Positions 5,313 through 39,500 of a DNA stretch of 40,000 nucleotides are shown in pieces. The position numbers and the translations under genes are program-made. This stretch comes from Sulfuricellaceae bacterium. GTDB lineage: Bacteria > Pseudomonadota > Gammaproteobacteria > Burkholderiales > Sulfuricellaceae. The notes under the pieces were generated by a model that saw only the letters and a program-made list of their open reading frames with translations, ran no database searches and was not told the DNA's origin. Where the stretch lies: contig JAUYFQ010000062.1 in NCBI GenBank assembly GCA_030690895.1, positions 1-40,000 of the forward strand. Reading direction: 5' to 3'. Every line of letters starts with the position of its first letter. Position 1 is the first letter of the stretch.

Positions 5313-5481
5313 TTACCACGAAACACACGAAATGCACGAAAAATGCAAAAGCGTATAAACAGGTAGTCCATGCGACACCTTACCGAATGAGTGAAAAGAA
5401 AAATATAGCCAACAAATCGATTTTTTCGTGTATTTCGTGTATTTCGTGTATTTCGTGTATTTCGTGTATTTCGTGGTTAAC
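5313..5481. repeat. inverted short-period repeat array: CACGAAA units on the left arm, 5.8 copies of the tandem 9-mer TTTCGTGTA on the right arm
   Basis: Left arm CCACGAAACACACGAAATGCACGAAAAA (5316-5343). Right arm TTTCGTGTA x5 plus TTTCGTGG (5424-5476). The arms are reverse complements around a loop of about 80 nt. Confidence 0.85.
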
Positions 5482-5493
5482 AGGTTTTCAGCT

Positions 5494-10528: not shown

Positions 10529-13459
10529 CTACGCCTTGATTTCTTCCATCGCCAGCAAAATCAATTGAACATCGCCGGATTTGCCGACGATACGACGGGC
10601 ATTCAACAGCATCCTGCGCCTGCCGATGACGGGGAAGTCATTTTCCACCACAAAACCCTCGAAACTCTGGTCGCGCGGCAGGATGGTATCCAGCAGTTCC
10701 CGCAATGCGGGAATGTCCCACTGGCGGTTGCCCAGTTCGTAGAGCGGACAACCCACGGTATCTTCCGCCGTGACCTGGAATTCCTGGTAAAACGAGCGGC
10801 TGGCCGAGGTGATTTGCAAGGCGCCATTCAGCACGACCAGCGGCTCGCGCACGGTATCGACGATGGCTTCGGCCAGTTCCCGCGCTGATCTCTCCGCCGC
10901 CTCGGCCCGGGTGCGTTCGCTGATGTCGGTGAAAGTCAGTACCACGCCTTCGATCACATTATCCAGCGTGCGGTAGGGCTGGATGCGGGCCAGGTAGCAG
11001 GCGTCGCCCGCAGTGCGCACCTCGCGCTCGCGTGGCGCCAGTGACTCGAGCACAGCCTTGGCATCGGCAAGCAGGTCTTCGTTCTCAAGATTGGATTTGA
11101 TGTCGCCCAGCGGCCGGCCCACGTCCGAGGCCACCAGGCGGTAGATGCCCGCTGCCTCGCGCGTGAAACGCTTGATCGACAGGTGCTGGTCGAGGAAGAT
11201 GGTGCCGATGTTGATGTTGTCGAGCAGATTCTTCATGTCGTTCTGCATCCCGGCCAGTTGCTCGATCTTGGCTTGCAGCTCGGCATTGACGGTCACCAGT
11301 TCTTCATTGACGGATTGCAGCTCTTCCTTGGAAGTTTCCAGTTCCTCGTTGGTGGATTGCAATTCTTCATTGGTCGACTGCAATTCCTCGTTGGTGGATT
11401 TGAGTTCTTCGTTGGAGGCCTGCTGTTCCTCGATGGTGGCCTGAAGATTTTCCCTGGTGTAGGCGAGATCGCGCTCCAGTTCCTCGACGCGCCGCTGTTC
11501 GCCATGCCCTGATGCCGCCCCCTTGCCGCGTCCCGGTTTGCCGGGTACTGGATGTGCCACGTCCTGGAAGCTGTTCAGCTGCAATTTCTCGTTGGAGTCA
11601 GGGTCGGGCAGGGGACGCAGGCTGAGGCTCACGGACTGAAAGTCGCCATTGGTCTTGATGTTCAGTTCGCGGCCCAGGGTGGGCATGCCCTGACCGGCGC
11701 CGATCAAGGCTGCGCGCAGTTCCAGTTGCAGGCCCTCGCGCGCCATGTCGACCACGTTGAGCGTGGCCTGACCGGGGGCCGGGCGCAGGTATTTGCCGGT
11801 GTCGCCGTGCACAAACAGGATGTTGCCCTTCATGTCTGTCACCACCGAGGCGGGCGCGTAGGCATGCAACAGCGTGCGTCTGGTCAGTTCGGCGAAGTTG
11901 GTTTCCTTGGTTTTCTTGATCACTTCACTTTGCCCCTTGGTATTGCCGTCGCCGGTCCACGACAGCCCGCCCGACATCACCGCACGGACGGAGGATGCAG
12001 AACCGGTAGCGCGGTAGAGCTTCCATTTGCGGTTGAGCGGTGCGAACAGCTCGGGGTGGTTGCCGGTGCTTTCCGAGGGCGAGAGAAACAGCACCCCACC
12101 CGGCTTGAGGGCGTAATGGAAGGCAGGGATGAGGCGGTTTTGCAGTTCCGGTTCCAGATAGATCATCAGGTTGCGGCAACTGAGCAGGTCGAGCCGGGTA
12201 AAAGGGGGGTCCTTGATAACGTTCTGGATGGCAAACACCACCATCTCGCGGATATCCTTCTTTACCCGGTAGCCCGCGTCCTCCTTGATGAAAAAGCGGC
12301 GCAGCCGCTCAGGGTGGATATCCTGGGCGATATTGGGCGGATAGATGCCGACACGCGCTATGGCAATGGCGTCATCGTCGAGGTCGGTGCTGTAGAGCTG
12401 GATTTTGAATTCCTGCCGTGTTTCATCCATGTACTCGCGCAGCAGCATGGCGATGGAATAGGACTCCTCGCCGGTGGCGCAACCCGCCACCCAGGCGCGG
12501 AATACATAGTCTTCGGGTTTGCCCGCCAGCAGTTGCGGCAGGACTTCCTCCTTCAGTTTTGCGAAGGCATCCGGATCGCGGAAGAAGCTGGTGACGTTGA
12601 TCAGCAGTTCCCTGAAAAGTATTTGCACCTCGGCTGGATGCTCCTTGAGATAGCGCGCGTAAATCTCGATATCCCCGATGTTGTGTTGCGACATGCGCCG
12701 CTCGATGCGGCGGCCGATGGTGCTCTTCTTGTATTGGGTGAAATCGTGGCCGGTGGCGCTGCGCAACAGCATCAAGATCCGTTTCATGCCGCTGGCTGCT
12801 GCGGGGGCTGGCGGCGCTTCATGCTGTACCGCCATGGCGTGCATGTCCGCCAACAGTATCGCGGGCATTTTTTCTACCGGCAGGACATGAGTGGCATAAC
12901 CGGCCTGGATGGCGCTGACGGGCATGCCGTCGTACTTGGCAGTGGTCGGTTCCTGCGCCAGTGTGACCCCGCCCGCGCCGAGGATGGCACGCAGTCCCAG
13001 CGTGCCGTCGGTGCCGGTGCCGGAAAGGATGATGCCAATCGCCTGCTCCCCCTGATCTTCGGCCAGTGAACGCAGGAAAGCGTCGATCGGCATGCGCTGA
13101 CCGCGTGGCAATTCCGGCACGGAGAGTTGCAGCGTGCCGTGGAAGATGGCCATGTCGCGGTTGGGCGGAATGACGTGAACCCGGTCAGGGGTCAACACCA
13201 TCTGATCCGTCGCTTCGACCACCGGCATGGCCGTGGTGCGTTGCAGGATTTCGCTGAGCAGGCTGGCATGGCTCGGGTCGAGATGTGGAACCAGTACGAA
13301 GGCCATGCCGCATTCGGGCGGGATATGGCGGAAAAATTGCTCGAAAGCTTCCAGTCCGCCGGCGGACGCGCCGATGCCGACAATGGGAAAAGCGGCAGCG
13401 CGGGTGTCCGGCGTTTCCGGGCTGGCAGCGGTCTTGATCTGGTTTTTCCTCACAGCCAT
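10529..13459 (-). CDS. CheB-methylesterase/CheR-methyltransferase fusion protein with coiled coil and PAS domains
   Basis: CheB-like GASAGGLEA, CheR-like SAM site (AGCATGEESYS), a heptad coiled coil (STNEELQ repeats) and a C-terminal PAS. The ATG at 13459 has AAGGA upstream; the ORF track begins at GTG 13489. Confidence 0.85.
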   Translation of the reverse strand: MAVRKNQIKTAASPETPDTRAAAFPIVGIGASAGGLEAFEQFFRHIPPECGMAFVLVPHLDPSHASLLSEILQRTTAMPVVEATDQMVLTPDRVHVIPPNRDMAIFHGTLQLSVPELPRGQRMPIDAFLRSLAEDQGEQAIGIILSGTGTDGTLGLRAILGAGGVTLAQEPTTAKYDGMPVSAIQAGYATHVLPVEKMPAILLADMHAMAVQHEAPPAPAAASGMKRILMLLRSATGHDFTQYKKSTIGRRIERRMSQHNIGDIEIYARYLKEHPAEVQILFRELLINVTSFFRDPDAFAKLKEEVLPQLLAGKPEDYVFRAWVAGCATGEESYSIAMLLREYMDETRQEFKIQLYSTDLDDDAIAIARVGIYPPNIAQDIHPERLRRFFIKEDAGYRVKKDIREMVVFAIQNVIKDPPFTRLDLLSCRNLMIYLEPELQNRLIPAFHYALKPGGVLFLSPSESTGNHPELFAPLNRKWKLYRATGSASSVRAVMSGGLSWTGDGNTKGQSEVIKKTKETNFAELTRRTLLHAYAPASVVTDMKGNILFVHGDTGKYLRPAPGQATLNVVDMAREGLQLELRAALIGAGQGMPTLGRELNIKTNGDFQSVSLSLRPLPDPDSNEKLQLNSFQDVAHPVPGKPGRGKGAASGHGEQRRVEELERDLAYTRENLQATIEEQQASNEELKSTNEELQSTNEELQSTNEELETSKEELQSVNEELVTVNAELQAKIEQLAGMQNDMKNLLDNINIGTIFLDQHLSIKRFTREAAGIYRLVASDVGRPLGDIKSNLENEDLLADAKAVLESLAPREREVRTAGDACYLARIQPYRTLDNVIEGVVLTFTDISERTRAEAAERSARELAEAIVDTVREPLVVLNGALQITSASRSFYQEFQVTAEDTVGCPLYELGNRQWDIPALRELLDTILPRDQSFEGFVVENDFPVIGRRRMLLNARRIVGKSGDVQLILLAMEEIKA
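11298..11423 (-). repeat. intragenic 21-bp tandem repeat (6 units) encoding the NEELQST heptad coiled coil
   Basis: The units at 11298, 11319, 11340, 11361, 11382 and 11403 are all variants of CAGTTCYTCRTTGGTGGATTG. Confidence 0.7.
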
Positions 13460-13630
13460 GAGTTCCTTGATTATGGGAGGCGTTGGCACGGGGTGGTCAG
13501 CACAAAATGCCCAAATCTAATTTGGCATCTTATTCCAAATTTACAGTCAATCCCACTACAGTTCGGCGGGTCTTTTCCTCATCTGCTCCAGACTTCTCCA
13601 CTGGTCTTCAGAAACGCCAGCAAAATTAAA

Positions 13631-20610: not shown

Positions 20611-23600
20611 TTAAGCCAGGGGTTTCTCTCCCCCCTCTTCGGCCAGCCTCTGATAGGCCCGGTAACGCTCCTCAATTTCCTGCTGGAAGACGGCCATGCA
20701 GGCATCGCCTTCCTTCTCGACATGTTTTAGCAAACCACGGAAACGCGGCTCGCTTTTGACCAGGTCGATGAAGGGGATGCTGGGGGCTTTTGAGTCCATG
20801 ACCAGCGGGTTCTTGCCTTCTGCGATGCGTCTTGGGTCGTGGCGGAACAGCGGCCAATGGCCGGAATCAACAGCCAGTTCCTGCTGGTGGTGCTGGTTGC
20901 TCATGTCGTAGCCGTGCTCGCCGCATGGGCTGTAGGCGATGATCAGCGAGGGGCCGTCGAAGGATTCGGCTTCCAGGAAGGTTTTGAGGGTATGGATGTC
21001 CTTTGCGCCGTAGGCGACATGGGCGACATAGACATTGCCGTAGCTCATGGCGATACGGGCCAGGTCTTTCTTGCCGGTGGCTTTTCCGTTGGCGGCGAAT
21101 TTGGCCGTGGCGCCGCGCGGGGTGGCTTTGCTGGCCTGACCGCCGGTGTTGGAATAAACCTCGGTATCGAGCACCAGAATATTGACGTTGCGCCCGGAGG
21201 CCAGCACATGATCGACGCCACCGAAGCCGATGTCGTAAGCCCAGCCGTCGCCGCCGATGATCCAGACGCTTTTCTTGACCAGGTTTTCCGCCAGGCTTTC
21301 CAGATTGCGCGCATCACTAATAAGGGACTCGCGTAGCGAGCCTGTGTCCCTCTCGCCTTTATGCCCTTCAGGGTACTCTGGGAGAGAGTTAGGAGAGAGG
21401 GAAATGATCGTCTTGAGTTTTGCCAATAGCTGCGCCACGCGCTCGCGCTGTTGCTGGATACCGGCTTCGCTGGACTGGTCGGCGGCGAGGATGGCGTCCA
21501 CCAGTTCTGTACCAAGCTGGTCTTTCATCTTTGTCGCCAGTTCGCCAGCATGTTCTGCATGTTTGTCGATGGTGACGCGGAAACCCAAACCAAATTCGGC
21601 GTTGTCCTCGAACAGCGAATTGTTCCAGGCCGGCCCGCGACCTTGCGTGTTCTGGCTATAGGGCGTGGTGGGCAGGTTGCCGCCGTAGATCGAGGAGCAG
21701 CCCGTCGCGTTGGCGACCACCATGCGGTCGCCGAACAATTGGGTAGCCAGGCGAATATAAGGCGTTTCTCCGCAACCCACACAGGCGGTGGGGAACTCGA
21801 ACAGCGGTTGCATCACCATGGCGCCCTTGATGGTGGAAATGCGCAGTTTGGTGCGGTCAAATTCCGGCAGTTTGAGGAAGAAGGCGAAGTTTTCCCGCTC
21901 TGTTACACGCAATGGCGCTTGTGGCCGCATTTCCAGCGCCTTGTGGCCGTCTTCCTTGCTCACCGCCGGGCAAATGTCCACGCACAGGCCGCAGCCGGTA
22001 CAGTCTTCCGGCGCAACCTGATAACTGACATGCATGCCTTCCTCGAACTCCTTGCCCTTGATCTGGATGTGCTTGAAGCTGGGCGGAGCGTCCTTGGCCA
22101 GTTCGGCATCAAATACCTTGGAGCGGATCGCGGTGTGCGGGCAGACGAAGGGGCATTTGCCGCAGTAGATACAGAGCGCTGCGTCCCATACCGGGATTTC
22201 CTGCGCCAGATTGCGCTTGTCGTAATGCGCGGTGCCGGTCGGCCAGGTGCCGTCGTTGGGCAGCAAGGACACCGGGATCAAATCGCCACGCCCGAGCATG
22301 ATTTCCCCGCTTACGCGGCGGACAAAGGCCGGTGCATTGGCCGGGATGTGGTTCTCCATTTCGAAGCAACTGGAAGACTGCTCGGGCACGTCCACCTGAT
22401 ACAGGTTGGCGAGGGTTTCGTCGATGGCTTTCCAGTTGGCTTCGACGATGGCCTGGCCTTTTTTGCCATAGGTTTTTTCAGCGGCGTATTTGATTTTCTC
22501 GATTGCCACGTCTTGCGGCAGCACGCCGGAAATGGCAAAAAAGCAGGCCTGCATGATGGTGTTGATGCGCGTCCCCATGCCAGTGGCGCGGGCGACGGCA
22601 TACGCATCAATCGTATAAAAGCGCAGTTTCTTGTCTATGATCTGTTGCTGCATCTTGCATGGCAATGTCGCCCAGACTTTATCAGGCGCAGCCGGTGAAT
22701 TCAGCAGGAACACCGCATTGTCAGCCGCGTTTTCGAGCATCTCGATGCGCTCGATGAAAATTGGCTGGTGGCAGGCGATGAAATTGGCCTCATCCGTGCC
22801 GATCAGGTAGCTGGAGTGGATGGGCTTGGGCGAAAAGCGCAGGTGCGAGGTGGTCATTGCTCCGGCTTTTTTCGAGTCATAGACGAAATAGCCTTGTCCA
22901 TAGAGTTCGGTTTCCTCACCCATGATCTTGATGGTGTTCTTGTTGGCAGAAACCGTGCCGTCCGAGCCCAATCCATAAAACAGCCCGCGCAACACGCCTG
23001 TCCCCGCATCGACGCGGTAGGCCGGGTTCCAGTCCAGGCTGGTGTGGGTGAGATCATCGATGATGCCGATGGTGAAATGATTCTTCGGTCTGTCCTTGCT
23101 GAGCTCGTCGAAAATGCCCGCGATCATGCCCGGTGTGAATTCCTTGGAGGAGAGGCCGTAACGACCGCCAACTACCGCTAACCCTCTCCCTAGCCCTCCC
23201 CCGCTCTTGTGCCCTTCAGGGTATGCGGGGGAGGGGACCATTGCTCCCTCTCCCGCCTGCGGGGGAGGGTTGGGGAGAGGGTTAATATTGGCGAGGGGGG
23301 TAGTGCTGGCGAAATTATCGAAAACCCCATGTTCTACCAGCGCAGTCACCACGTCCTTGTAAAGCGGTTCGCCATCTGCGCCAGGCTCCTTGCAGCGGTC
23401 GAGCACGGCAATTTTCCGGGTGCTGGCGGGCAGCACTTCGATCAGCCTCGAAGGGTCGAGAGGCCGATACAAGCGCACCTTGACCATGCCCACTTTCTCG
23501 CCGCGTGCGACCAGGTGTTGCACGGTTTCTTCCACCGCCTCGGCGCCAGAGCCCATGAGAATGATGATCCGCTCCGCGTCCGCCGCGCCTACATATTCAA

Positions 23601-24381
23601 ACAGCTTGTACTGACGTCCGGTGAGCTGGGCGAACTTGTCCATTTCATATTGCACGATGCCGGGCATCAGGTCGTAGTAGGCATTGACCGTTTCGCGTGC
23701 CTGGAAATACACGTCGGGGTTCTGCGAGGTACCGCGCACCACCGGGTGCTCGGGCGAGAGCGCACGGGCGCGATGAGCGCGAACCAGTTCGTCGGAAATC
23801 ATTTCGCGTACGGTTTCGATCGGCACTTGCTCGATTTTCGCCACTTCATGCGAAGTGCGGAAGCCATCGAAAAAATGCAGAATCGGAATACGGGCTTCGA
23901 GCGTGGCGGCCTGGGCGATCAAGGCCAGATCCTGTGCTTCCTGCACCGAGTTGGAACTCAGAAAGGCAAACCCCGTCCCGCGCGCGGCCATCACGTCGCT
24001 ATGGTCGCCAAAAATGGACAAGCCCTGCGCGGCCAGCGAGCGCGCCGCCACATGCATCACGAAAGGCGTCAGTTCCCCGGCAATCTTGTACATGTTGGGA
24101 ATCATCAGGAGCAAACCCTGCGAAGCGGTGAAAGTCGTCGCCAGCGCCCCGGTCTGGAGCGCGCCATGAATGGTTCCCGCCGCGCCTGCCTCGCTTTGCA
24201 GTTCGATCACTTCCGGCACAGTGCCCCACAGGTTTTTCTGACCCATGGCGCTCCAGGCATCCGAATATTCCCCCATCGGCGAAGATGGCGTGATCGGATA
24301 AATGGCGATAACTTCGTTGGTGAGGTGAGCGATGTAGGCGGCGGCTTCGTTGCCGTCAACGGTGACTGTGGTGGCTGACAT
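20611..24381 (-). CDS. nifJ: pyruvate:ferredoxin (flavodoxin) oxidoreductase
   Basis: 1256 aa with two ferredoxin-type clusters (CIYCGKCPFVCP, CTGCGLCVDICP), the TPP motif GGDGWAYDIGFGG and AGGAG upstream of the ATG. It carries two repeat-derived in-frame insertions. Confidence 0.95.
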   Translation of the reverse strand: MSATTVTVDGNEAAAYIAHLTNEVIAIYPITPSSPMGEYSDAWSAMGQKNLWGTVPEVIELQSEAGAAGTIHGALQTGALATTFTASQGLLLMIPNMYKIAGELTPFVMHVAARSLAAQGLSIFGDHSDVMAARGTGFAFLSSNSVQEAQDLALIAQAATLEARIPILHFFDGFRTSHEVAKIEQVPIETVREMISDELVRAHRARALSPEHPVVRGTSQNPDVYFQARETVNAYYDLMPGIVQYEMDKFAQLTGRQYKLFEYVGAADAERIIILMGSGAEAVEETVQHLVARGEKVGMVKVRLYRPLDPSRLIEVLPASTRKIAVLDRCKEPGADGEPLYKDVVTALVEHGVFDNFASTTPLANINPLPNPPPQAGEGAMVPSPAYPEGHKSGGGLGRGLAVVGGRYGLSSKEFTPGMIAGIFDELSKDRPKNHFTIGIIDDLTHTSLDWNPAYRVDAGTGVLRGLFYGLGSDGTVSANKNTIKIMGEETELYGQGYFVYDSKKAGAMTTSHLRFSPKPIHSSYLIGTDEANFIACHQPIFIERIEMLENAADNAVFLLNSPAAPDKVWATLPCKMQQQIIDKKLRFYTIDAYAVARATGMGTRINTIMQACFFAISGVLPQDVAIEKIKYAAEKTYGKKGQAIVEANWKAIDETLANLYQVDVPEQSSSCFEMENHIPANAPAFVRRVSGEIMLGRGDLIPVSLLPNDGTWPTGTAHYDKRNLAQEIPVWDAALCIYCGKCPFVCPHTAIRSKVFDAELAKDAPPSFKHIQIKGKEFEEGMHVSYQVAPEDCTGCGLCVDICPAVSKEDGHKALEMRPQAPLRVTERENFAFFLKLPEFDRTKLRISTIKGAMVMQPLFEFPTACVGCGETPYIRLATQLFGDRMVVANATGCSSIYGGNLPTTPYSQNTQGRGPAWNNSLFEDNAEFGLGFRVTIDKHAEHAGELATKMKDQLGTELVDAILAADQSSEAGIQQQRERVAQLLAKLKTIISLSPNSLPEYPEGHKGERDTGSLRESLISDARNLESLAENLVKKSVWIIGGDGWAYDIGFGGVDHVLASGRNVNILVLDTEVYSNTGGQASKATPRGATAKFAANGKATGKKDLARIAMSYGNVYVAHVAYGAKDIHTLKTFLEAESFDGPSLIIAYSPCGEHGYDMSNQHHQQELAVDSGHWPLFRHDPRRIAEGKNPLVMDSKAPSIPFIDLVKSEPRFRGLLKHVEKEGDACMAVFQQEIEERYRAYQRLAEEGGEKPLA
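21346..21404. repeat. intragenic palindromic repeat in nifJ (encodes SLSPNSLPEYPEGHKGERD)
   Basis: Hairpin TCCCTCTC...GAGAGGGA. The 25-mer at 21380-21404 is the exact reverse complement of 31891-31915 (hoxU/Y junction). Confidence 0.8.
23179..23284. repeat. composite intragenic palindromic repeat in nifJ (encodes NPLPNPPPQAGEGAMVPSPAYPEGHKSGGGLGRGL)
   Basis: Two nested hairpins with outer ends TAACCCTCTCC...GGAGAGGGTTA. The core matches the copies at 31925 and 38659 with about 3 mismatches. Confidence 0.8.
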
Positions 24382-24414
24382 GATGACTCCTGATTGATCC
24401 TGGAAAACTCAATT

Positions 24415-24538
24415 AACCACGGGGCACACGGGGATCACGGGGCAAAATCAATACGTTGCATGACTTTTTGCCATCACCCATCAGGTGAGGCATACCAAAA
24501 TCCAAAATCTCATGGCATCCCCCGCGTGTCCCGTGGTT
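24415..24538. repeat. inverted short-period repeat element (CACGGGG units) upstream of nifJ
   Basis: Left arm AACCACGGGGCACACGGGGATCACGGGG (24415-24442); right arm CCCCCGCGTGTCCCGTGGTT (24519-24538). Collinear with the 5313-5481 element. Confidence 0.7.
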
Positions 24539-24622
24539 CAAATGCGGTTTTAGGTTTATGCACTGAAACCACAATAAACCTGTTGAACCGGGCTGGCAAG
24601 TATCTGGATTTTGCTGTCCGGA

Positions 24623-27436
24623 TTAAGTGCTTTTCCACGATGGGTCGGGCTGCCAGGCGGCGATCCAGGCCGGAAGTTCTGCTGCGGGCATGGGGCGCGC
24701 GATGCCGTGGCCCTGGCCCAGAAAACACCCCAGATGCAGGAGCATCCGGCCGTGCGCGGCTGTTTCCACGCCTTCGGCAATCACGGAGCGGTGGAATGCC
24801 TCGGCCAGGCCGATGACGCCTTCGATGATCGCCATGTCTTCCACATCGGTGAGCATGTCGCATACGAAGGACTGATCGATCTTGAGCGTTTCTGCAGGCA
24901 GGCGTTTCAGATAGGTGAGCGAGGAGTAGCCCGTGCCGAAATCATCCAGGGCGAACGATACGCCTATCCGCTGACAGGCCTTGATCAGGCCGGAGACATG
25001 GGCTACATCCTCGATTGCCGCACTTTCCAGTACCTCCAGTTCGAGCCGGTTTTTCGCCACGTCGGGGTAGCGGTCGAGCATTATCTTCATGCGCTCGGCA
25101 AAATTGAAGCAGGCCAGGTGGTGTGCGGCAATATTGACGCTCACCCGCATATCCAGCCCCGCTGCACGCCAAGCCGCCATCTGGCGCAGGGCTTCGGTAA
25201 TCACCCACTCGCCGATCCGGATTTCCAGTTCAGCATCCTCCAGCATCGGCAGAAATTCGCCAGGCAGCAGCATGCCACGCTCCGGATGGCGCCAGCGGAT
25301 CAGGGCTTCGGTGCCAACCACGATACCTGCGCACATGTCCACCTTGGGCTGATAGTAAAGGCAGAATTCCTCTTTAAGCAGTGCGGTTTCGATCCGGTTG
25401 AGCAATTCACGACGCCGACGAACCGTATGGTCGTGCTGCGGATCAAACAGGTGGTAACGATTGCGCCCGGCTTCCTTGGCCGCATACATGGCCTGGTCGG
25501 CATGGCGCATCAGGGTGTCGGAATCTGACCCATCGCCTGGAAAAATAGTGGCGCCAATGCTGGCGGTGACCGACAGTTTTTCGCCGTCGACAGGCACCGG
25601 TTGTGAAACGGCATGCAGCACGCGGGTCAGCGTGCCTTCGCATTCTTCGACATCGGCCAAGCCTGCCAGCAGAAGCACGAATTCGTCGCCACCCAGGCGA
25701 GCCACGGTGTCGCCGCCGCGCACTGCGGCATTCAGGCGCGTCGCGACTTCTGCGAGCAAACGGTCGCCCATGGCATGACCGTGGGTGTCGTTAATCGGTT
25801 TGAATCCATCCAGATCGAGATAGCAGATGGCCAGTTTTTCTCCGGAACGCTCGGCCTGGGCCAGGGCCACTTTCATACGGTCGGTGAGCAGCGCCCGGTT
25901 TGGCAGGCCGGTTAGCGGATCATAGTGAGCCATATGTTCCAGGCGGGCTTCCTGAGCCTTGAGCTCTGAAACGTCGGTGAAAATACCGATATAGCGGCTT
26001 ATCTTCCCGGCAGCATCTCGAACCGCGACGATGGAAAGGCGATCGGGATAAATGCCGCCATTTTTACGCCGGTTCCATATTTCCCCGTGCCAGTGCCCCT
26101 TGGTCTGAATATCCTTCCACATGGACTCGTAGAAAGCGGGCTCGTGCATGCCAGAAGCCAGTAAGCGTGGCGTTTGGCCCAGCGCCTCGTCGCGGCTGTA
26201 ACCGGTAATCTGGCTGAATGCCGGATTTACTTCGATGATGATCCGTTCGGCATCGGTGACCACGATGGATTCGATGGCGTTCTCGAATACGCCAGCCGCC
26301 AGGGCCAGTCGCTCCAGCGTTTCATGTTCCTCGGTCTGGTCGCGAAAAACCAGGACTACGCCGCCAACCCTGCCATCGGCATGACGAATCGGTGCGGCGG
26401 AATCGGCGATGAGGATCTCCGTGCCATCACGGGCGATCAGCAAGGTATGGTTGGCCAGACCCACGATTACGCCTTCGCGTAGTGCTTGGGCTGTCGGGCA
26501 TTCCACTTCCAGACGCGTGTACTCGTTGATGATGCGAAAAACTTCCAGCAGGGGCTGGCCGCGCGCTTCTTCTGCTTTCCAGCCGGTCAGGCCTTCTGCC
26601 ACCGGGTTCATGAAGCTCACCCGGCTTTCGTTGTCAGCGGTGATCACCCCGTCGCCAATGGAGGACAACGTGACTGAAAGTCGCTCGGCTTCCTGGCGTA
26701 GATCGGCTTGCGCCGTTTCAACGGCTTCTGCCATACGGTTGAAGGCTGTGATAATACGGGTTACTTCCGGGCTGCCACGAAGTGGGATGCGGGTCGATAA
26801 CTGCCCATTGGCCAGTGCCCCCGCGCCTTTGCCGAGTGCGGAGAGGGGGCGCAGACTGCTTTTCAGGATCAGCAGGATACCGATGAAGTCCAGCGCCACC
26901 GCCAGCACCAGAATATTCAAATGGCTAAGGAAGGAAGCCCACAGACGCTCGATTTTGACTGATGCCGAGGTGACGAGCGTGACGGCGCCGTAGTTTCTGC
27001 CTCCTATGCTCAGGGTGCGCGTCGCCTGCTGCTCGGGGATGTTGACCCAGTGGATGAACCATCCCGGCGCGTGAGGTAATTTTGGCTTGTCAATTGCCTC
27101 TATGACCCGGCCTTTTCGGTCCACCCAGGTGACATGATCGATTTCATTGTGTTTGGCCCGCTGTTTGAGCGTTTGTTCGATATTGGCGTAGTCGCCGATG
27201 ACCGCCCACTCTGAAATGGCTGGCAACAGGGATTCCATCTCATTGCTGAGTTCTGCCGAAATCTCGATTCGGGAAAATTCAGCATCCTTGCTGGTGGAGA
27301 CGTAGAGCAGCAGGACGCCGGCCACAATCAAGGCGAATCCCGCACTGAACATCATGCGCATGACGAGGGTCAGACGTGACCAGAATCGTGCCAGCAAATT
27401 TTTCTCCAAATGATCCTGGTAGTCATGTTGAATCAC
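24623..27436 (-). CDS. membrane sensor with HAMP, two PAS, GGDEF and EAL domains (c-di-GMP turnover)
   Basis: 937 aa with N-terminal TM segments, the GGDEF motif (RLGGDEFVLL), the EAL motif (TEALIRW) and DDFGTGYSSL. Confidence 0.9.
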   Translation of the reverse strand: MIQHDYQDHLEKNLLARFWSRLTLVMRMMFSAGFALIVAGVLLLYVSTSKDAEFSRIEISAELSNEMESLLPAISEWAVIGDYANIEQTLKQRAKHNEIDHVTWVDRKGRVIEAIDKPKLPHAPGWFIHWVNIPEQQATRTLSIGGRNYGAVTLVTSASVKIERLWASFLSHLNILVLAVALDFIGILLILKSSLRPLSALGKGAGALANGQLSTRIPLRGSPEVTRIITAFNRMAEAVETAQADLRQEAERLSVTLSSIGDGVITADNESRVSFMNPVAEGLTGWKAEEARGQPLLEVFRIINEYTRLEVECPTAQALREGVIVGLANHTLLIARDGTEILIADSAAPIRHADGRVGGVVLVFRDQTEEHETLERLALAAGVFENAIESIVVTDAERIIIEVNPAFSQITGYSRDEALGQTPRLLASGMHEPAFYESMWKDIQTKGHWHGEIWNRRKNGGIYPDRLSIVAVRDAAGKISRYIGIFTDVSELKAQEARLEHMAHYDPLTGLPNRALLTDRMKVALAQAERSGEKLAICYLDLDGFKPINDTHGHAMGDRLLAEVATRLNAAVRGGDTVARLGGDEFVLLLAGLADVEECEGTLTRVLHAVSQPVPVDGEKLSVTASIGATIFPGDGSDSDTLMRHADQAMYAAKEAGRNRYHLFDPQHDHTVRRRRELLNRIETALLKEEFCLYYQPKVDMCAGIVVGTEALIRWRHPERGMLLPGEFLPMLEDAELEIRIGEWVITEALRQMAAWRAAGLDMRVSVNIAAHHLACFNFAERMKIMLDRYPDVAKNRLELEVLESAAIEDVAHVSGLIKACQRIGVSFALDDFGTGYSSLTYLKRLPAETLKIDQSFVCDMLTDVEDMAIIEGVIGLAEAFHRSVIAEGVETAAHGRMLLHLGCFLGQGHGIARPMPAAELPAWIAAWQPDPSWKST

Positions 27437-28333: not shown

Positions 28334-28419
28334 CAGGATTCCCCCGCCATGTCAAATTGTCAGATTTTGCGATCATCCAGCAAATCGCCTGTTTTGCCAA
28401 GAAATGCTTGTTGTTCCGG

Positions 28420-28490
28420 TGATGAGTAATGGGTGATGGGTAATGAGTGATAAAAACCTCCGCCCATCACCCATCACCCATTACTCATCA
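28420..28490. repeat. heptamer-array palindrome (RGTRATG units) in the divergent region upstream of hoxF
   Basis: Perfect 22-bp inverted repeat TGATGAGTAATGGGTGATGGGT (28420-28441) and ACCCATCACCCATTACTCATCA (28469-28490), each arm built from tandem 7-mers. Confidence 0.85.
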
Positions 28491-28553
28491 ATCTGTTTTT
28501 GGTCATACTTCTGGAGTAAAGTTGAAACTCCAAATCTTAGGCGAGACCGAATA

Positions 28554-30383
28554 ATGGAATCCCGGGAAATTCAGAATATGGAGTCATTTCTTGCTTCGCT
28601 TCTCAAGCAGAGCGGCGAGGACTCCGGCTCCCTGCTGCAAATTCTGCGCGAGGTGCAGGATCATTTTCATTTCATTCCGCCTGAAGCCATCGAATGGCTT
28701 GCTGCACGGCTGGATGTGCCACGCAGCCGGATCGAGGGCGTGGCGGGGTTTTATTCCTTTCTGTCCTTGGCCCCGCAGGGGGAATACCGCGTCCTGTTCT
28801 CCGACAATATCACCGATCAGATGCTGGGCAAGCTGGAGCTGATGCAGTATTTCTGCAACAAGCTGTGGGTCGAGCCGGGCAAGGTTTCGGAAGACAATCT
28901 GGTAAGCGTGGACAGCACGTCCTGCACCGGGATGTGCGACCAGGGGCCAGCAGCGCTGGTGAATGGCTGGCCGCTGACCAATCTCGACCCCAACCGGCTG
29001 GACTTGATTGCCGAGCTGATCCGCGTACGCAAGCCGCTGGCCGATTGGCCGCCGATGTTGTTTGAGGTGCAGGACAAGATACAGAAGGCTGGCGTCTTGC
29101 TGGGCGAGGCGTTTGAGCCCGGAGCGGCAATCCGCGCCACGCTGGCGCGCGGCGCGATGGCGACGCTGGATGAAGTGGAACGCGCCAATCTGCGAGGACG
29201 GGGCGGAGCCGGGTTCAAGACCGCGTCCAAGTGGCGTTTTTGTCACGCTGCCATCGACGAGCGCGAGGGCAGCATGATCTGCGATGTGGGCGGCCTGCCG
29301 CAGCGGGTCATGGTGTGTAACGCCGACGAGGGCGAACCGGGGACGTTCAAGGATCGCGTGCTGCTCAATAGCTACGCCGATCTGGTGTTCGAGGGCATGA
29401 CGGTGGGTGCGCGGGTGGTCGGGGCGAGCCTGGGTTTTCTCTACCTGCGCGGTGAATACCGCTATCTGAAAGCGCCACTGGAAGCCGTACTGGCGCGTCG
29501 GCGCGAGAGCGGGTTGCTGGGGCGCTCGATTTTGGGTGAGGCAGGATTCGATTTCGATATTGAAATCCATCTGGGGGCGGGCGCCTATATCTGTGGCGAG
29601 GAATCGGCGCTGATCGAGTCGCTCGAAGGCCAGCGCGGACGGCCGCGCAACCGACCCCCTTTTCCGGTGACGCAAGGCTACATGGGCAGGCCGACGGTCG
29701 TGGATAACGTCGAGACGTTCGCCTGCGCCGCAAAAATTGCCGAGAAGGGCGGCGCATGGTTTGCCGCCATGGGCACGGCGCAATCGACCGGCAGCAAGCT
29801 GCTTAGCATCTCCGGCGACTGCGAGCGGCCCGGTATTTACGAATACCCGTTCGGGGTAACGGTAGAAGAAGTGCTACGCGATTGTGGCGCAAGTGATGCG
29901 CATGCCGTGCAGGTAAGCGGCCCTTCCGGAACGCTGGTTTCCTGGCAGGAATTCGGTCGCCGGATTGCGTTCGAGGATATTCCGACCGCCGGCGCATTCA
30001 TGGTTTTCCACCGCCAGCGCGAAATGTTTCTGGCAGCACATAATTTCACGAATTTTTTTGCGCATGAAAGCTGCGGTTTCTGCACCCCGTGCCGGGTCGG
30101 CACGCAATTACAAAAGCGCATCATGGACAAGATCGCCAGCGGTCACGGCACCCCGGCTGATCTGGAAGAACTCAAACGGCTGGGCGAGATTCTGGTCAAT
30201 ACCAGTCATTGCGGTCTGGGACACAGCGCGGCCAACCCCATCCTGGATACGCTGAAAAAATTCCCCGGCACGTTTGAGCGCAAACTCAAAAATCTGGCTT
30301 TTGAGCCCGCCTTCGACCTGGACGGCGCATTGGCAACCGCACGCCAGATTACCGGGCGAGATGATGAATGGGCGCATTTGTAA
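28554..30383 (+). CDS. hoxF: NAD-reducing [NiFe] hydrogenase diaphorase subunit HoxF (fused NuoE-like and NuoF-like)
   Basis: FMN site RGRGGAGFKT, NADH site GAGAYICGEESALIESLEG and 4Fe-4S site ESCGFCTPCRVG. Start taken at ATG 28554 because the track start (28443) lies inside the repeat. Confidence 0.88.
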   Translation: MESREIQNMESFLASLLKQSGEDSGSLLQILREVQDHFHFIPPEAIEWLAARLDVPRSRIEGVAGFYSFLSLAPQGEYRVLFSDNITDQMLGKLELMQYFCNKLWVEPGKVSEDNLVSVDSTSCTGMCDQGPAALVNGWPLTNLDPNRLDLIAELIRVRKPLADWPPMLFEVQDKIQKAGVLLGEAFEPGAAIRATLARGAMATLDEVERANLRGRGGAGFKTASKWRFCHAAIDEREGSMICDVGGLPQRVMVCNADEGEPGTFKDRVLLNSYADLVFEGMTVGARVVGASLGFLYLRGEYRYLKAPLEAVLARRRESGLLGRSILGEAGFDFDIEIHLGAGAYICGEESALIESLEGQRGRPRNRPPFPVTQGYMGRPTVVDNVETFACAAKIAEKGGAWFAAMGTAQSTGSKLLSISGDCERPGIYEYPFGVTVEEVLRDCGASDAHAVQVSGPSGTLVSWQEFGRRIAFEDIPTAGAFMVFHRQREMFLAAHNFTNFFAHESCGFCTPCRVGTQLQKRIMDKIASGHGTPADLEELKRLGEILVNTSHCGLGHSAANPILDTLKKFPGTFERKLKNLAFEPAFDLDGALATARQITGRDDEWAHL

Positions 30384-31168: not shown

Positions 31169-31906
31169 ATGAAGACTCTGAAAATAGACGGATGCGAAAT
31201 CCCCTTCACCACCGGGCAGACCATCATGGATGCGGCGCTGGCTGCCGGGGTTTATATCCCGCATCTGTGCCATCACCCCGAATTCAAGCCGCACGGTAGT
31301 TGCAAGCTGTGTACGGTGAAGGTGAACGGGCGTCATGTGTCGGCCTGTACCTTGCCGGTGGGCGAGGGTATGGAGGTGGAGAACAATAGTGCGGAACTGA
31401 ATGCCGATCGCCTTGCGCTGGTGCAGATGCTGTTTGTCGAGGGCAATCACTTGTGTCCGACTTGCGAAAAAAGCGGGAATTGCCAGCTCCAGGCGGTGGC
31501 CTACCATCTCAATATGTTGACCCCGCATTACAATCATTTTTACCCGCCGCGCGAGCTTGATGCCTCTCATCCCGATGTGTTCCTGGATCGCAACCGCTGC
31601 ATTTTGTGCGAGCTGTGTGTGCGAGCCAGTCGGGATGTGGATGGCAAGGAGGTGTTTGGCCTTTCCGGGCGTGGAGCCAGTTCCCGCCTGGTGGTGAATT
31701 CACCCAGCGGCAGGCTGGCCGATAGCAGCTTTGCTGTTACCGACAAGGCCGCCAGGGTGTGCCCGACCGGCGCGATTCTGATCAAGCGGGTGGGATTCAG
31801 CGTGCCGATTGGTGAGCGGATTTTTGATCGGCATGACATTAGTGAACTGGGCATTAGTGAACCGGGCGAAGGTGGAGGTCAACATGGCAGTTTCCCTCTC
31901 TCCTAA
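31169..31906 (+). CDS. hoxU: hydrogenase diaphorase iron-sulfur subunit HoxU
   Basis: A 2Fe-2S N-terminus (CHHPEFKPHGSCKLCTV) followed by 4Fe-4S motifs (CPTCEKSGNC, CILCELCVRAS). The last codons and the TAA stop lie inside a repeat element. Confidence 0.9.
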   Translation: MKTLKIDGCEIPFTTGQTIMDAALAAGVYIPHLCHHPEFKPHGSCKLCTVKVNGRHVSACTLPVGEGMEVENNSAELNADRLALVQMLFVEGNHLCPTCEKSGNCQLQAVAYHLNMLTPHYNHFYPPRELDASHPDVFLDRNRCILCELCVRASRDVDGKEVFGLSGRGASSRLVVNSPSGRLADSSFAVTDKAARVCPTGAILIKRVGFSVPIGERIFDRHDISELGISEPGEGGGQHGSFPLS

Positions 31907-32561
31907 CTCTCTCCCGGGGGGTAGCCCCCTCCCCAACCCTCCCCCGCAAGCGGGAGAGGGGGCAATGGTCAAGGGCGCTTGTTCTGATTTGAGGGACGCA
32001 GGCTCGCTTTGCGAGTCTCATATTAGGCCTAAAATCCGTATTGCCACCTGTTCGCTGGCGGGCTGCTTCGGCTGCCACATGTCCTTGCTGGATATTGATG
32101 AAAAACTGCTCGATCTGCTTGAGCTGGTCGAATTCAACCGTAGCCCGTTAACCGATATCAAACACTGCGGGCCGTGTGATGTCGGTATTGTCGAAGGCGG
32201 GGTGTGCAATGCCGAGAATGTCCACGTCCTGAAGGAATTTCGCAAGCACTGCAAGGTGTTGGTCGCCATGGGCGCCTGCGCGATTACCGGCGGCCTGCCC
32301 GCCATGCGCAACAATATTGACCTGTGGGACTGCTTTCAGGAGGTGTATCTGTACGAAGGCGGGCTGGAGGGTGGACAAATTCCAAATGACCCCGAGCTGC
32401 CCCTGCCGTTCGACAAGGTTCACCCCATCTATGAAGTGGTCAAAGTGGATTATTTCCTGCCCGGCTGTCCGCCCTCTGCCGATGCGATCTGGCACTTCTT
32501 GACCGAATTGCTGGCGGGCAGGGAACCAGGCGTGACCGGGAAGCAATTACATTTTGATTAG
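31884..32561 (+). CDS. hoxY: [NiFe] hydrogenase small subunit HoxY
   Basis: The conserved core starts at KIRIATCSLAGCFGCHMSLLDIDE. ATG 31884 has GGAGG 6 nt upstream. An alternative ATG at 31965 lies inside the repeat. The N-terminal ~27 aa are repeat-encoded. Confidence 0.85.
   Translation: MAVSLSPNSLPGGSPLPNPPPQAGEGAMVKGACSDLRDAGSLCESHIRPKIRIATCSLAGCFGCHMSLLDIDEKLLDLLELVEFNRSPLTDIKHCGPCDVGIVEGGVCNAENVHVLKEFRKHCKVLVAMGACAITGGLPAMRNNIDLWDCFQEVYLYEGGLEGGQIPNDPELPLPFDKVHPIYEVVKVDYFLPGCPPSADAIWHFLTELLAGREPGVTGKQLHFD
31888..31977. repeat. composite palindromic repeat at the hoxU/hoxY junction
   Basis: Module TTTCCCTCTCTCCTAACTCTCTCCC (31891-31915) plus a core at 31925-31977 that is 52/53 identical to 38659-38711. 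Confidence 0.85.
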
Positions 32562-36578: not shown

Positions 36579-39500
36579 TTAACCCGCCACCACTCGAACC
36601 CTGCCTTGCTCATCCCGCACAGCCCGCCCCAGCGCCACCAGGGTTTCCAGCAGTTGCGGCAAGCGTTTTTTCCATGCGCCCTTGCCGCTGAAATGCTCGG
36701 CCAGCTCGGACTCGGAAAGCGGCTTGCCTGCGCTGGACAAAATCTGGGCGATGGCGGCCATTTGGGCGGGGAGTTCGGCGGGCCAGGGGGATTTGCTTTG
36801 CGCATTCTCCCCCTCGCCGGTATTTACCCCCTCCCCAACCCTCCCCCGGAGGGAGAGGGGGCTATCCATTGGGGTTTCAGCGTTTGTACCATTAAGTTGC
36901 TGCTGTTGCGGGGCTGCCTGGGGATGCTGGTAGGCGGGGCGCAGCCAGCGGATTTGGCCTTGGGCTTCCTCGGCGGCGCGTTCGGTGTTGAGGGCGACGA
37001 GTCTTTCGAGGATAGTTTCGGCCACGCCCCCTTCTCCTCCGGCCTGGTAGGGCGCAATAACCAACGGGCATTGCGCCGGAGGCATCTGGTGCAATGCGCC
37101 ACGCTTATTGCACCCTACAATATCCAGGTCGCTCCAGCCATAAGCTTGCAGCACCGCCGCATCAAGGTCGTCGTGGAAGGATTTGAGCACGGCGACCAGG
37201 CCTTTTTCGTAAATCGCCTGCTCCTTCGCGTTTCGGTCTGCGCCAGTTCTCAGTTTTTCCAGCACGTTATATAGCCCGGTCAGCGTTAACTCTGGATGCT
37301 CGGCCAGCACGCGCTTGCGGTGGGCGTCGAGCTGTTCGGCGAGAGAGCGAATGCGAGCAGATAAAACAAATCGCTCTTGTCCATTGCCCCCTCTCCCTCC
37401 GGGGGAGGGTTGGGGAGGGGGTAAGTCGGGGAAAGGGAAAGTCTCGAAGCAGCGGGATTTGTTGTAGCGCGGCCTGTCTTCCAGCGTGCCACCTTGCGCC
37501 AGCGCCCAGATGACATGCACCTGGCTCGACAGCACGCCCAGCCAATAAGCATCATCGAGCGCGATGCAAATCAGTTTGTTGTCCGGCGCAATTTCAGCAT
37601 CCAGAAACTGGAAAACTCGGTGCTTGGCGGTTTCGACGGTGGCGATGTAGCGTGGCAGGCCGGTGAGCGTGGCACGCATGACTTTGCGCGGCTCTCCGAA
37701 AATCCACCAGTTGTCGCGGTAACTTGCCCGGTTGTTGAGGTCACGTTCGGGTTTTACCCGTTCCAGCACCCATTGATAGGTGGCTGGCCAGCGGCGACGC
37801 ACTTCGTCTGCATCATGGCCGTAGAGATCGATCAATTTGACGCCGCGCGGTCGGTCGGTGAGGTCGCGACCATTGCGGTAGGGCTTGATTGGCGCATCGG
37901 TTTCGAGTTGCGCAGCTTGTTCCGGCGTGACGATAAAACCCGAACCAAACAACTGAAAACCACGATTCGCAAGCCCTTCATTGGCCCGCAACCCCAACGC
38001 CCCCGCCACATTCGCCCCAATGCTCAAGTCGGCATGAATCACGCCAACACGCTGTGCCAGCGTCACTTCCAACCCCTCGCCGCTGCCGCTTCGCTCGTCG
38101 GTCACGGTGAGCAGGCATCCCTGCTCCCCTCTCCCTCCGGGGGAGGGGGTGGGGGTGGGGGAGGGGGAGGGGGAGGGCACGCCAACCGTCATCGCAATCC
38201 GAACCGCCGCGCCGCCGCTGTTTTCCACCCAGGGATGGTCGGGGATGGCGAAGGCCAGGTGTAGCATCTTCACCCTCTCCCCAACCCCTCTCCCGTCAAG
38301 GGAGAGGGGTTTTTCTCCCCTCCCCCCTCGCGGGGGAGGGGCTGGGGGAGAGGGGTTTAAGGTCGGAGAGGGAGATAAATACGCTTCCAGCACGCGGCGG
38401 TTGAAGGTCTGGCGCAGGCTGTTGGTGGTGATGAAGCCAAAGCGTTGCGCCTTGCCTGCTGTGACCAGCGCGGCGGCCTTGTGCCACCAGAACATGACCA
38501 GGTCGGCGGATTCCGGCACCTCCGGGTAGGCGGCGCGCAAGGCGTCCACGTAGGCGTCGCCCAGCGCGGCACGCATGGCGGATGCGCCGATGAAGGGCGG
38601 GTTGCCGATGATGTAGTCGGCTTCGGGCCAATCTGCTGGTTTACCCTTGCCTGCTTTACCCCCTCCCCAACCCTCCCCCGCAAGCGGGAGAGGGGGCAAT
38701 GGTGAAGGGCGATGGGTTTTATCTGGGGGCAATGGTGAGGGGCGATTGTTTAGAACGGCGTCACGGCATTCGATGTTGTGAAAATCGCGCAGCACCGGTT
38801 CGGGCGGGAGGCTGGCGCCTTTTGTGCGGAAGTGCCATTGCAGGTGGCCGATCCATAGCACCAGTTCGGCGATGGCGGCGGCGCGGGGGTTGAGTTCGAT
38901 TCCAAGAAACTGGTGCGGATCGACGGTCAGTCCTTCGGCGTCGAGACTGCCGGAGGCGCCGAGGTCTTGCAGCAAATCCAGCACTTCGCCTTCGAGCCGC
39001 TTCATGTGTTCCATAGTGACGTAGAGGAAGTTGGCCGAGCCGCAGGCGGGGTCGAGTACGCGAATGTTGCATAGCCGGTAGTGGAAGGCGCGGATTTCCT
39101 GTTGCGCTTCTTTTGCGCGGCCTTCGCGGTCGAGCAGCAGGGCGGCGGCCTGGATGTTGGCCCATTCTGCGCGTAGCGGTTCCATCACGGTGGGGAGCAC
39201 CAGGCGTTCGACGTAGGCGCGGGGGGTGTAGTGCGCGCCGAGGCTGTGGCGTTCGCTGGGGTCGAGGGCGCGTTCGAGCAGGGTGCCAAAAATGGCGGGT
39301 TCGACCAGCGTCCAGTCGGCATGGGCGGCGCGTAACAAAAGGGTGATTTGTTCGCGGTTTAACGCTAGCGCGGTTGGATTTTTGAAGAACTTGCCGTTGA
39401 AGCGCGGCAGTTTGGCGCGCAGGGCGATGGAGAAACCGCCGCTGTCCATTTTTTGCCACAGTTCGCTGACCATGGCTTCAAATTGTTCCGGCGCGTCGGC

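Follow-up and report, generated by a model that had tools for sequence, protein, structure and literature searches.

Why should two intergenic regions of one bacterial contig carry palindromic sequences that are collinear with one another and differ by a swap of base triplets mirrored on the opposite arm of each palindrome? The question is raised by a 40,000-nucleotide stretch of a Sulfuricellaceae bacterium (Bacteria; Pseudomonadota; Gammaproteobacteria; Burkholderiales; assembly GCA_030690895.1, contig JAUYFQ010000062.1, positions 1 to 40,000 of the forward strand), which is called here the window. Element A (5298-5492) is inserted between the open reading frame (ORF) of a DUF938 methyltransferase (4689-5312, minus strand) and selO (5494-6963, minus strand), and element B (~24404-24551) between nifJ, encoding pyruvate:ferredoxin oxidoreductase (PFOR; 20611-24381, minus strand), and a LapD-HAMP-PAS-GGDEF-EAL gene (24623-27436, minus strand; hereafter the EAL gene). 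An earlier, sequence-only reading of this DNA had seen in the compensatory swap the conservation of a structure rather than of a sequence. Comparison with relatives leads to another answer: both elements entered the lineage after its split from the closest sampled relative, and the site of A is the ATGA overlap of selO and DUF938 itself, where the insertion duplicated TGAA and uncoupled both genes.

Insertion of A and B beside selO and nifJ

DUF938 homologues group the host with Sulfuricella/Sulfurimicrobium-like betaproteobacteria. In three relatives selO and DUF938 overlap, by 13 nt in a 90%-identical relative and by ATGA in the loci L120 (87%) and L323 (78%); in the latter two, for which DNA is available, the empty junction reads TCATGAAAC. 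At the same place the window reads tcgTGAA, followed by gctgaaaacctgTTAACCACG...CGTGGTAAatgaagggttacaga and then by aTGAAac, that is ~195 bp of extra DNA with TGAA duplicated at both ends, and alignment of this site with those of the relatives gives a single gap of ~200 nt with TGAA at either edge. The duplication leaves intact the stop codon of selO (5496-5494) and the genuine start of DUF938 (5297-5295), the latter being identified by homologues of 197-200 aa whose start matches this ATG and gives MKHYAES. The ATG at 5312, from which the sequence-only reading had measured a distance of 1 nt to the palindrome, is spurious and lies within the insertion, in a segment (5298-5312) that also holds AAGGG 8 nt upstream of the genuine start. 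The ATGA coupling of selO and DUF938 is now replaced by a 195-nt spacer.

At nifJ, the closest relative shows 93% nifJ identity, an identical gene order and the same nifJ N-terminus, while its upstream spacer measures 80 bp, the window having 241 bp there; the excess of 161 bp agrees with the size of B plus its outer flanks. Element A is also absent from the 76.5-kb contig of that relative. As the closest relatives lack A and B at the orthologous positions, the two elements are insertions rather than conserved cis-elements. An independent Logan contig encoding an identical SelO protein stops inside an arm of A, which argues that A is real and not an artefact of one assembly, and that A breaks assemblies. 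The parts of both elements are as follows, in window coordinates.

5293-5297, minus strand: target duplication of element A on the DUF938 side; ATGAA on the minus strand; includes the genuine DUF938 start (5297-5295); placed from the empty junction in L120 and L323
5298-5312, minus strand: outer terminal segment of A; atgaagggttacaga on the minus strand; pairs with 5481-5492; inside the insertion
5313-5341, plus strand: purine-strand arm of A; TTACCACGAAAcaCACGAAAtgCACGAAA; TTACC end, then three units CACG-AAA-NN
5342-5423: centre of A; 82 bp, AT-rich, non-conserved, no ORF
5424-5480, plus strand: inverted arm of A; TTTCGTGTA in 5.8 perfect units (100% matches, score 104), then GGTTAA
5481-5492, minus strand: second outer terminal segment of A; gctgaaaacctg on the minus strand; inside the insertion
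5493-5497, minus strand: target duplication of A on the selO side; GTGAA on the minus strand; includes the selO stop TGA (5496-5494)
24404-24412, plus strand: outer terminal segment of element B; aaaactcaa, preceded by ctgg; pairs with 24539-24551; resembles the A terminus CTGAAAAC
24413-24444, plus strand: purine-strand arm of B; TTAACCACGGGGcaCACGGGGatCACGGGGca; TTAACC end, then three units CACG-GGG-NN
24445-24519: centre of B; 75 bp, no ORF; part similar to the centre of the element in locus L033
24520-24538, plus strand: inverted arm of B, decayed; CCCCGCGTGTCCCGTGGTT; ~2 units, one indel
24539-24551, plus strand: second outer terminal segment of B; caaatgcggtttt; boundary approximate

The arms of both elements are thus inverted arrays of 9-bp tandem units, each consisting of CACG, a purine triplet (AAA in A, GGG in B) and two variable bases, with (T)TAACC at the end. 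The two palindromes are present where the sequence-only reading had noticed them and their periodic pattern is confined to them: CACG-N5-CACG-N5-CACG has six exact matches in the window, all within A or B, against 0.29 in shuffles, and a generalised unit pattern has six against 0.04 expected. The arms of each element are complementary as described, over 39 nt at 82% in A and over 19 nt at 89% in B. Some particulars of that reading have to be amended. The swap of AAA/TTT for GGGG/CCCC is indeed compensatory and in fact exchanges one triplet for another, AAA for GGG, in units that both measure 9 bp, since the fourth G is the last base of the CACG core; the arms lie as placed, within palindromes that reach further outwards (5298-5492 and ~24404-24551). 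The better-conserved arm is the one nearest the downstream gene in B and not in A, whose distal arm has the six perfect units, and a position just after the stop of the upstream gene does not describe B, since ~70 nt lie between its end and the EAL stop codon. The unequal number of units in the two arms of A (3 versus 6) is typical of slippage. When A is compared with B, similarity is restricted to the arms and to outer termini of type CTG(R)AAAAC, which are common to both despite the different triplets.

It is worth mentioning two further sequences at B. Its centre contains a small hairpin, CCATCACCCATCAGGTGAGG (24466-24487), whose CCCATCA repeat resembles the heptamers of another palindrome of the window (28417-28491, see below); the element in L033 carries ATCACCCAATGGGT at the corresponding position. 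The spacer left between B and the EAL gene contains AAACCTGTTGAACC (24575-24592), which closely resembles the A terminus AAACCTGTTAACC and may be what is left of a third element end, now decayed.

The wider family and the covariation of its arms

The genome and viral collections were scanned with the pattern TTAACCACG-N5-CACG-N5-CACG, in which the triplets were left free; all counts from these scans, and from that of the metagenomes, are lower bounds and relate to one genome per species. The genome collection contains at least 128 matches in at least 118 loci from more than 10 phyla, the hosts including Verrucomicrobiota, Planctomycetota, Beta- and Gammaproteobacteria, Desulfobacteraceae, Acidobacteriota, Lentisphaerae/Kiritimatiellae, Spirochaetia, Chloroflexi (Herpetosiphon), Bacteroidota, Cloacimonadota, Armatimonadota, Acidimicrobiia and one metagenome-assembled genome (MAG) of Methanosarcinaceae. 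The last of these (L048), with a paired CACGGAA-type hairpin, is the sole archaeal match among those listed and could be either a contaminant of the bin or the outcome of a true transfer. Among the matches listed, the three triplets of an arm are all identical in 96 of 128 cases and near-identical in 124, and they fall into eight classes (AAA, AAG, GAT, GAG, GAA, GGG, AAT and GCG). An inverted partner arm is found 9-400 nt away (within 450 nt) for 55 of 87 arms (63%), against 2 of 87 in the control, and 53 of these 55 pairs carry the same triplet on both arms.

The family logo runs from a purine-rich through a T-rich stretch to TTAACCACG and then to R-A-D-N-A-CACG repeats. In the wider family the unit becomes C-R-C-N-R-R-D-N-N, and the elements of the window match this generalised pattern too (C-R-C-N-R-R-D heptamers with spacers of 1-2 nt and a TAACC cap). 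Element centres are non-conserved and mostly devoid of ORFs, and the palindrome extends only weakly beyond TTAACC across the family (7.8 versus 6.9 matches of 17). Elements may be nested, as in L031 (~350-450), where a CGCAGAG-type nonamer element lies within a GGG-type element, or composite, as in L111, where a GAG arm is fused to a GGG arm. Classical GTAG-type hairpins of the repetitive extragenic palindromic (REP) kind (GTAGGAGCGGCCTCAGGCCGCGA and the like) have been inserted into the GGG-type elements L012, L036 and L053, at their centres; two loci of one MAG (L042 and L074) hold copies with related centres; and the first 30 arm nucleotides of B (24413-24442) are identical to an arm in L033, from a betaproteobacterial MAG, the centres of both being partly alike. 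Taken together with the assembly break in A, these nestings, REP insertions and related copies are hallmarks of mobile DNA.

In viral contigs the arms listed are mostly single (~90% unpaired) and lie in short intergenic gaps. The 42.6-kb contig IMGVR_UViG_3300009185_000039 (L225, L228, L243) carries at least five single CACGGAG-type arms, some directly before start codons, and nearly the same 30-mer occurs in other viral contigs. A heterotypic pair was seen in L208 and L240, where the complement of a CACAGAG-type arm stands 17 nt behind a CACGAAG-type arm; poor pairing is to be expected of it.

The sequence-only reading had looked to further copies and to covariation above background; further copies exist in other genomes, and the covariation is real. 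The proportion of paired cells in 37 independent arm pairs is 92%, compared with 82.6% in shuffled pairs and 34-44% when the register is slid, so that the compensatory pattern is real family-wide. In the triplet columns Watson-Crick alternatives alone occur, with 19 A-U, 18 G-C and 0 unpaired at the first position. The CACG scaffold, which had been called invariant, is so among these 37 pairs and not in the wider family, where CACG, CGCG, CACA, CGCA and CGCC cores co-vary between arms. At the two spacer positions pairing is lacking in 27-38% of cases and of Watson-Crick type in 56%, against 37% shuffled; the G-T and A-C mismatches there follow composition and therefore give no wobble signature. 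It is also worth recalling that the direct repeats within an arm share their triplet (the 96 of 128 above), which pairing does not require; pairing alone explains neither this uniformity nor the spacer mismatches, the unequal unit numbers of the two arms, the co-varying cores and the heterotypic pairs. The simplest account of the covariation is that it is what inverted copies of one homogenised unit would show in a lineage of mobile palindromes, rather than a selected RNA structure or a terminator, and it may have been reinforced by a need for ends that look alike to one protein or by DNA pairing during movement. Accordingly, the earlier proposal of structure conserved in preference to sequence is not borne out, in view of the empty orthologous sites, the triplet uniformity in direct repeats, the spacer mispairing, the variable core of the wider family, the lack of orientation bias and the non-conserved centres.

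With respect to transcription, the genes flanking the elements show no sense or antisense bias (33 sense versus 29 antisense for single arms). The idea that the hairpins might terminate transcripts finds no support at either element, since a terminator scan detected no U-tract after the hairpin on the minus (mRNA) strand at A or B; after GGTTAA the family logo is A-rich and then pyrimidine-rich, with no T-run. Rfam 15 gave no match at gathering score, either for the window or for 12 loci of the family, and noise only at E values up to 5. The predicted mRNA-strand hairpins of the two elements reach -60.1 kcal/mol (z = -4.05) and -57.6 kcal/mol (z = -4.8). According to these folding models, the selO-DUF938 and EAL-nifJ transcripts would have acquired strong hairpins of ~-58 to -60 kcal/mol, so that side effects at the RNA level may arise, and A and B may affect the expression of their genes.

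Other functions of the arms were considered and set aside. A coding reading, in which the reverse strand gives (L/F/I/P)-R-V...R-G-stop in frame with the adjacent gene in L009 and L098, was rejected because L118 is out of frame and both orientations occur. GGAG and AAGG recur before starts in viral contigs, and a Shine-Dalgarno or translation-enhancer role was rejected as a general function on account of the balanced orientation of single arms. A bidirectional terminator was rejected for lack of a T-run, and a resemblance to DnaA boxes was dropped as it concerns the GAT class only. P0006 lies in another gene context.

GxxExxY genes between the arms and the rival explanations

What, then, could move such palindromes? 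In those relatives of A and B that carry a gene, arms of the same type enclose a PD-(D/E)XK gene. Clustering of the ORFs of the 118 genome loci yielded a single arm-adjacent family, of ~120-aa proteins in seven loci, all directly flanked among the loci listed, and these proteins are GxxExxY proteins (TIGR04256, PF13366 PDDEXK_3). The start codon of the gene follows closely on the purine array in L009, L098 and L118, and its stop codon is closely followed by the complementary array in the last two; the L009 gene runs past the edge of its locus at the 3' end. The reverse test began from 80 metagenomic GxxExxY genes, 75 of which entered the flank comparison: an inverted repeat of at least 15/20 connects the two flanks in 50 of these 75, against 0 of 75 shuffled. 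The flanks hold inverted arrays of the same architecture with units other than strict CACG, and an identical 7-mer stands on both sides in 26 of the 30 genes that have repeated units on both flanks, against 3.7 when shuffled. The family comprises at least 7,993 clusters at 90% identity (E <= 1e-5) and is rare on plasmids (7 of 72,556 records). Its predicted fold is a minimal PD-(D/E)XK nuclease (pLDDT 92.7) whose nearest structures are lambda-exonuclease/Cas4/Hjc-type nucleases, a weak and generic likeness (TM 0.5-0.6), and a sequence search of the PDB with the GxxExxY profile gave no match. The function of GxxExxY is listed as unknown in one review covering the family. As regards other cargo, an arm pair in L019 (5092-5433) surrounds an 80-aa ORF with a weak DUF4926 match and no GxxExxY gene; this ORF may be an alternative cargo.

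On the whole, it is rather probable that A and B are copies, without a gene, of a palindromic insertion element that is dispersed, acts as DNA and resembles both REPINs and miniature inverted-repeat transposable elements (MITEs). Each end of such an element is an array of two to six or more 9-bp units capped by (T)TAACC, the two ends being inverted around a short non-conserved centre. Both arms, and all units within an arm, would descend from one unit, which slippage and inter-arm templating would keep uniform while lineages come to differ in the unit they carry. It is tempting to speculate that the nonamer arrays are recognition sites for the GxxExxY nuclease and that gene-less copies are mobilised in trans, perhaps via a hairpin or cruciform intermediate, in the way that GxxExxY genes between arms parallel RAYT genes between REPs; we offer this tentatively, as a possibility drawn from the analogy. 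Bolder and more doubtful still is the extension of the same analogy by which GxxExxY proteins would be the enzymes of a PD-(D/E)XK-based replicator system comparable to REPIN-RAYT, spread over viral contigs and more than 10 bacterial phyla, in which each paralogue would read its own 9-bp unit, triplet and core would form a specificity code, and A and B would be non-autonomous progeny.

Several observations weigh against this picture. Strict CACG arms occur at only ~6 of the 80 GxxExxY genes; no GxxExxY gene was seen with GGG arms, and AAA units adjoin such a gene in a single locus, L083, with its mixed AAG/AAA array. A profile hidden Markov model search of the fetched loci found no GxxExxY ORF in the relatives' loci L119-L121 (the window was outside this search), the centres of A and B (82 and 75 bp) contain no ORF, and no transposase was seen in the window or in the relatives' loci. 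The target duplication is known from one site only, that of A, and the occurrence of TGAA twice on each side makes the exact ends of A ambiguous; for B the empty-site evidence is spacer length alone (80 versus 241 bp). The mostly single arms of viral contigs are not predicted by a two-ended transposon model, and no GxxExxY gene was found in 1.08 Mb of viral contigs. Nuclease or transposition activity of GxxExxY proteins is not reported in the searchable literature. Finally, the related metagenomic contigs L125, L128, L129 and L130 all have a GxxExxY cassette in one position, immediately upstream of a pilT-like gene (MPYLDQFLQAIV...), the cassette of L128 having lost its 3' arm, and this shared site suggests long residence rather than frequent movement.

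The explanation closest to the sequence-only reading, a cis-acting structured RNA (terminator, attenuator, or processing or stability hairpin) whose pairing is under selection, has in its favour the strong predicted mRNA-strand hairpins, the fully compensatory triplet columns and the position of A and B in or beside operon-like gene pairs. We nevertheless hold it to be improbable: the element is missing at the orthologous sites of the nearest relatives and stands beside unrelated genes in many phyla, the direct repeats share the triplet as well, the spacer bases are often unpaired without an excess of G-U, and there is neither an orientation bias, nor a U-tract after the hairpin, nor an Rfam match, while the heterotypic arms of L208 and L240 are unable to pair. 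Far less credible is that the arrays are operator sites of a transcription factor controlling nifJ and DUF938. Directly repeated motifs near gene starts, in two inverted arrays, would suit such a role; they are absent in relatives that possess the same genes, more than 10 phyla, as well as viral contigs, have such arms beside unrelated genes, and the 9-bp phasing with variable triplets matches no known regulon.

Two further explanations concern the DNA level. A and B could be ordinary MITEs, internally deleted derivatives of a conventional insertion sequence (IS), whose transposase (DDE or other) reads the TTAACC/CTGAAAAC ends, with GxxExxY as a mere frequent passenger. Their small size, terminal inverted repeats, lack of ORF and duplication of 4-5 bp agree with this, as do the CTG(R)AAAAC-type outer termini that A and B share despite their different triplets. 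Yet in ~2.3 Mb of genome, metagenome and viral loci no arm pair surrounds a recognisable transposase or an IS-sized element, the Pfam check having covered the recurrent GxxExxY cargo and one DUF4926-like ORF, and GxxExxY is the only recurrent cargo between arms there; tandem 9-mer arms that vary between copies are, moreover, not known as typical of IS ends. We therefore consider it unlikely, if less so than an RNA function. In a homing-site model, the palindromes would be landing pads into which GxxExxY, as a homing endonuclease gene, is copied by repair via arm homology, the palindromes themselves spreading otherwise. PD-(D/E)XK homing endonucleases do exist, I-Ssp6803I being one. The gene fills the interval between the arms precisely, its start directly following the 5' array and its end directly preceding the 3' array, one unit type is found on both sides, and gene-less forms far outnumber gene-bearing ones (55 pairs versus 7 loci). 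Filled and empty versions of one palindrome were not found among the loci, and the model leaves unexplained how a palindrome was inserted at a new site such as the selO/DUF938 junction; its probability seems low to us. A mobile palindrome with GxxExxY between the arms of its gene-bearing relatives remains the reading that we retain.

Other repeats of the window, novelty and known systems

The window contains other repeats. A second tandem-unit palindrome (28417-28491) consists of ~5 heptamers of GGTGATG/GGTAATG type, a 12-nt loop and ~4 heptamers of CCCATCA type, and occupies the divergent intergenic region before the ORF 28443-30383, whose predicted start falls inside the hairpin. A 21/42-bp tandem repeat (11297-11439; 6.8 or 3 copies, 70-77% matches) within a 986-aa ORF (10529-13489, minus strand) is probably a repetitive protein segment. 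A (GGGGGA) x6.5 tract (38139-38177) lies within the long ORF 36579-39992 (minus strand), and the 15-bp direct repeat CATTAGTGAACyGGG is present in two copies at 31837-31867, where the plus-strand ORFs 31169-31906 and 31809-32561 overlap, so that by the ORF list this repeat is not intergenic.

Dispersed palindromic repeats as such are a known kind (REP/REPIN, MITE, Correia, ERIC). Three features of the family appear to be undescribed in Rfam 15 and in the searchable open literature (a description may exist in subscription journals or database comments): the tandem-nonamer arms, which vary between copies and classes, their spread across phyla and their link with GxxExxY. A literature search with the literal arm sequences returned primers only, and in the open literature we found no description of repeats flanking GxxExxY, PF13366 or TIGR04256 genes, or flanking the genes of 23S intervening sequence (IVS) proteins. 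Two odd intergenic sequences are explained as recent insertions, one of which split the translationally coupled pair selO/DUF938 while the other precedes nifJ. The consequences reach beyond this contig: very widespread palindromic repeats of this class break assemblies, and since their arms co-vary by descent they will give false hits wherever structured RNAs are sought by covariation. The large GxxExxY/PDDEXK_3 family gains a first concrete genomic context, and with it the hypothesis of a nuclease that would act on the nonamer arrays around its own gene.

Among known systems, the likeness is to REP/REPIN elements and RAYT transposases, reportedly the subject of work by Nunvar in 2010 and by Bertels and Rainey in 2011. 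These elements too are short multi-copy palindromes of intergenic DNA in which a short spacer separates two inverted repeats, they form sequence classes of which a genome may hold several, their associated gene is bracketed by inverted repeats, and the arms stay complementary. In contrast to REPINs, the arms of the window and of the family lack a GTAG/GTGG head, start with (T)TAACC followed by CACG units, and are tandem 9-bp arrays capped by TTAACC, GTAG-type REPs being found only as separate insertions in some centres. The flanked gene encodes a ~120-aa PD-(D/E)XK protein (PF13366/TIGR04256) and not an HUH Y1 transposase (PF01797) as in RAYTs, and whereas REPs are known to be lineage-specific, the architecture and part of the core are common across phyla in the present family.

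In the manner of MITEs, A and B have terminal inverted repeats, measure less than ~600 bp and lack an ORF, and A has a target duplication and an empty site. No parent IS with the same ends and a transposase was found among strict CACG arm pairs up to 2.5 kb apart in the genome loci and the window, or among generalised arms up to 1.2 kb apart in ~2.3 Mb of loci. Correia elements of Neisseria and ERIC/IRU elements of enterobacteria are similar in being 100-200 bp long, with terminal inverted repeats, no ORF, insertion beside or between genes and a short target duplication. They also form co-transcribed hairpins able to alter mRNA processing, which was shown experimentally for Correia and ERIC and is predicted for A and B. 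Unlike them, the present family has no known parent insertion sequence and its ends are homogenised tandem nonamers that differ between copies; the duplication at A is TGAA, whereas that of Correia is TA.

The GxxExxY cassettes also recall the 23S rRNA intervening sequences of Leptospira and Coxiella, with their IVS protein (PF05635, a four-helix bundle), in that a ~120-aa ORF lies between inverted repeats, a long stem would form on transcription and the unit behaves as an insertion; the protein family is a different one, and A and B are outside rRNA and without ORF. Finally, cyanobacterial STRR heptamers are comparable as intergenic tandem units of 7-9 bp that sometimes form inverted blocks, and differ in having other units, no known TTAACC cap and no demonstrated link with a gene cassette.

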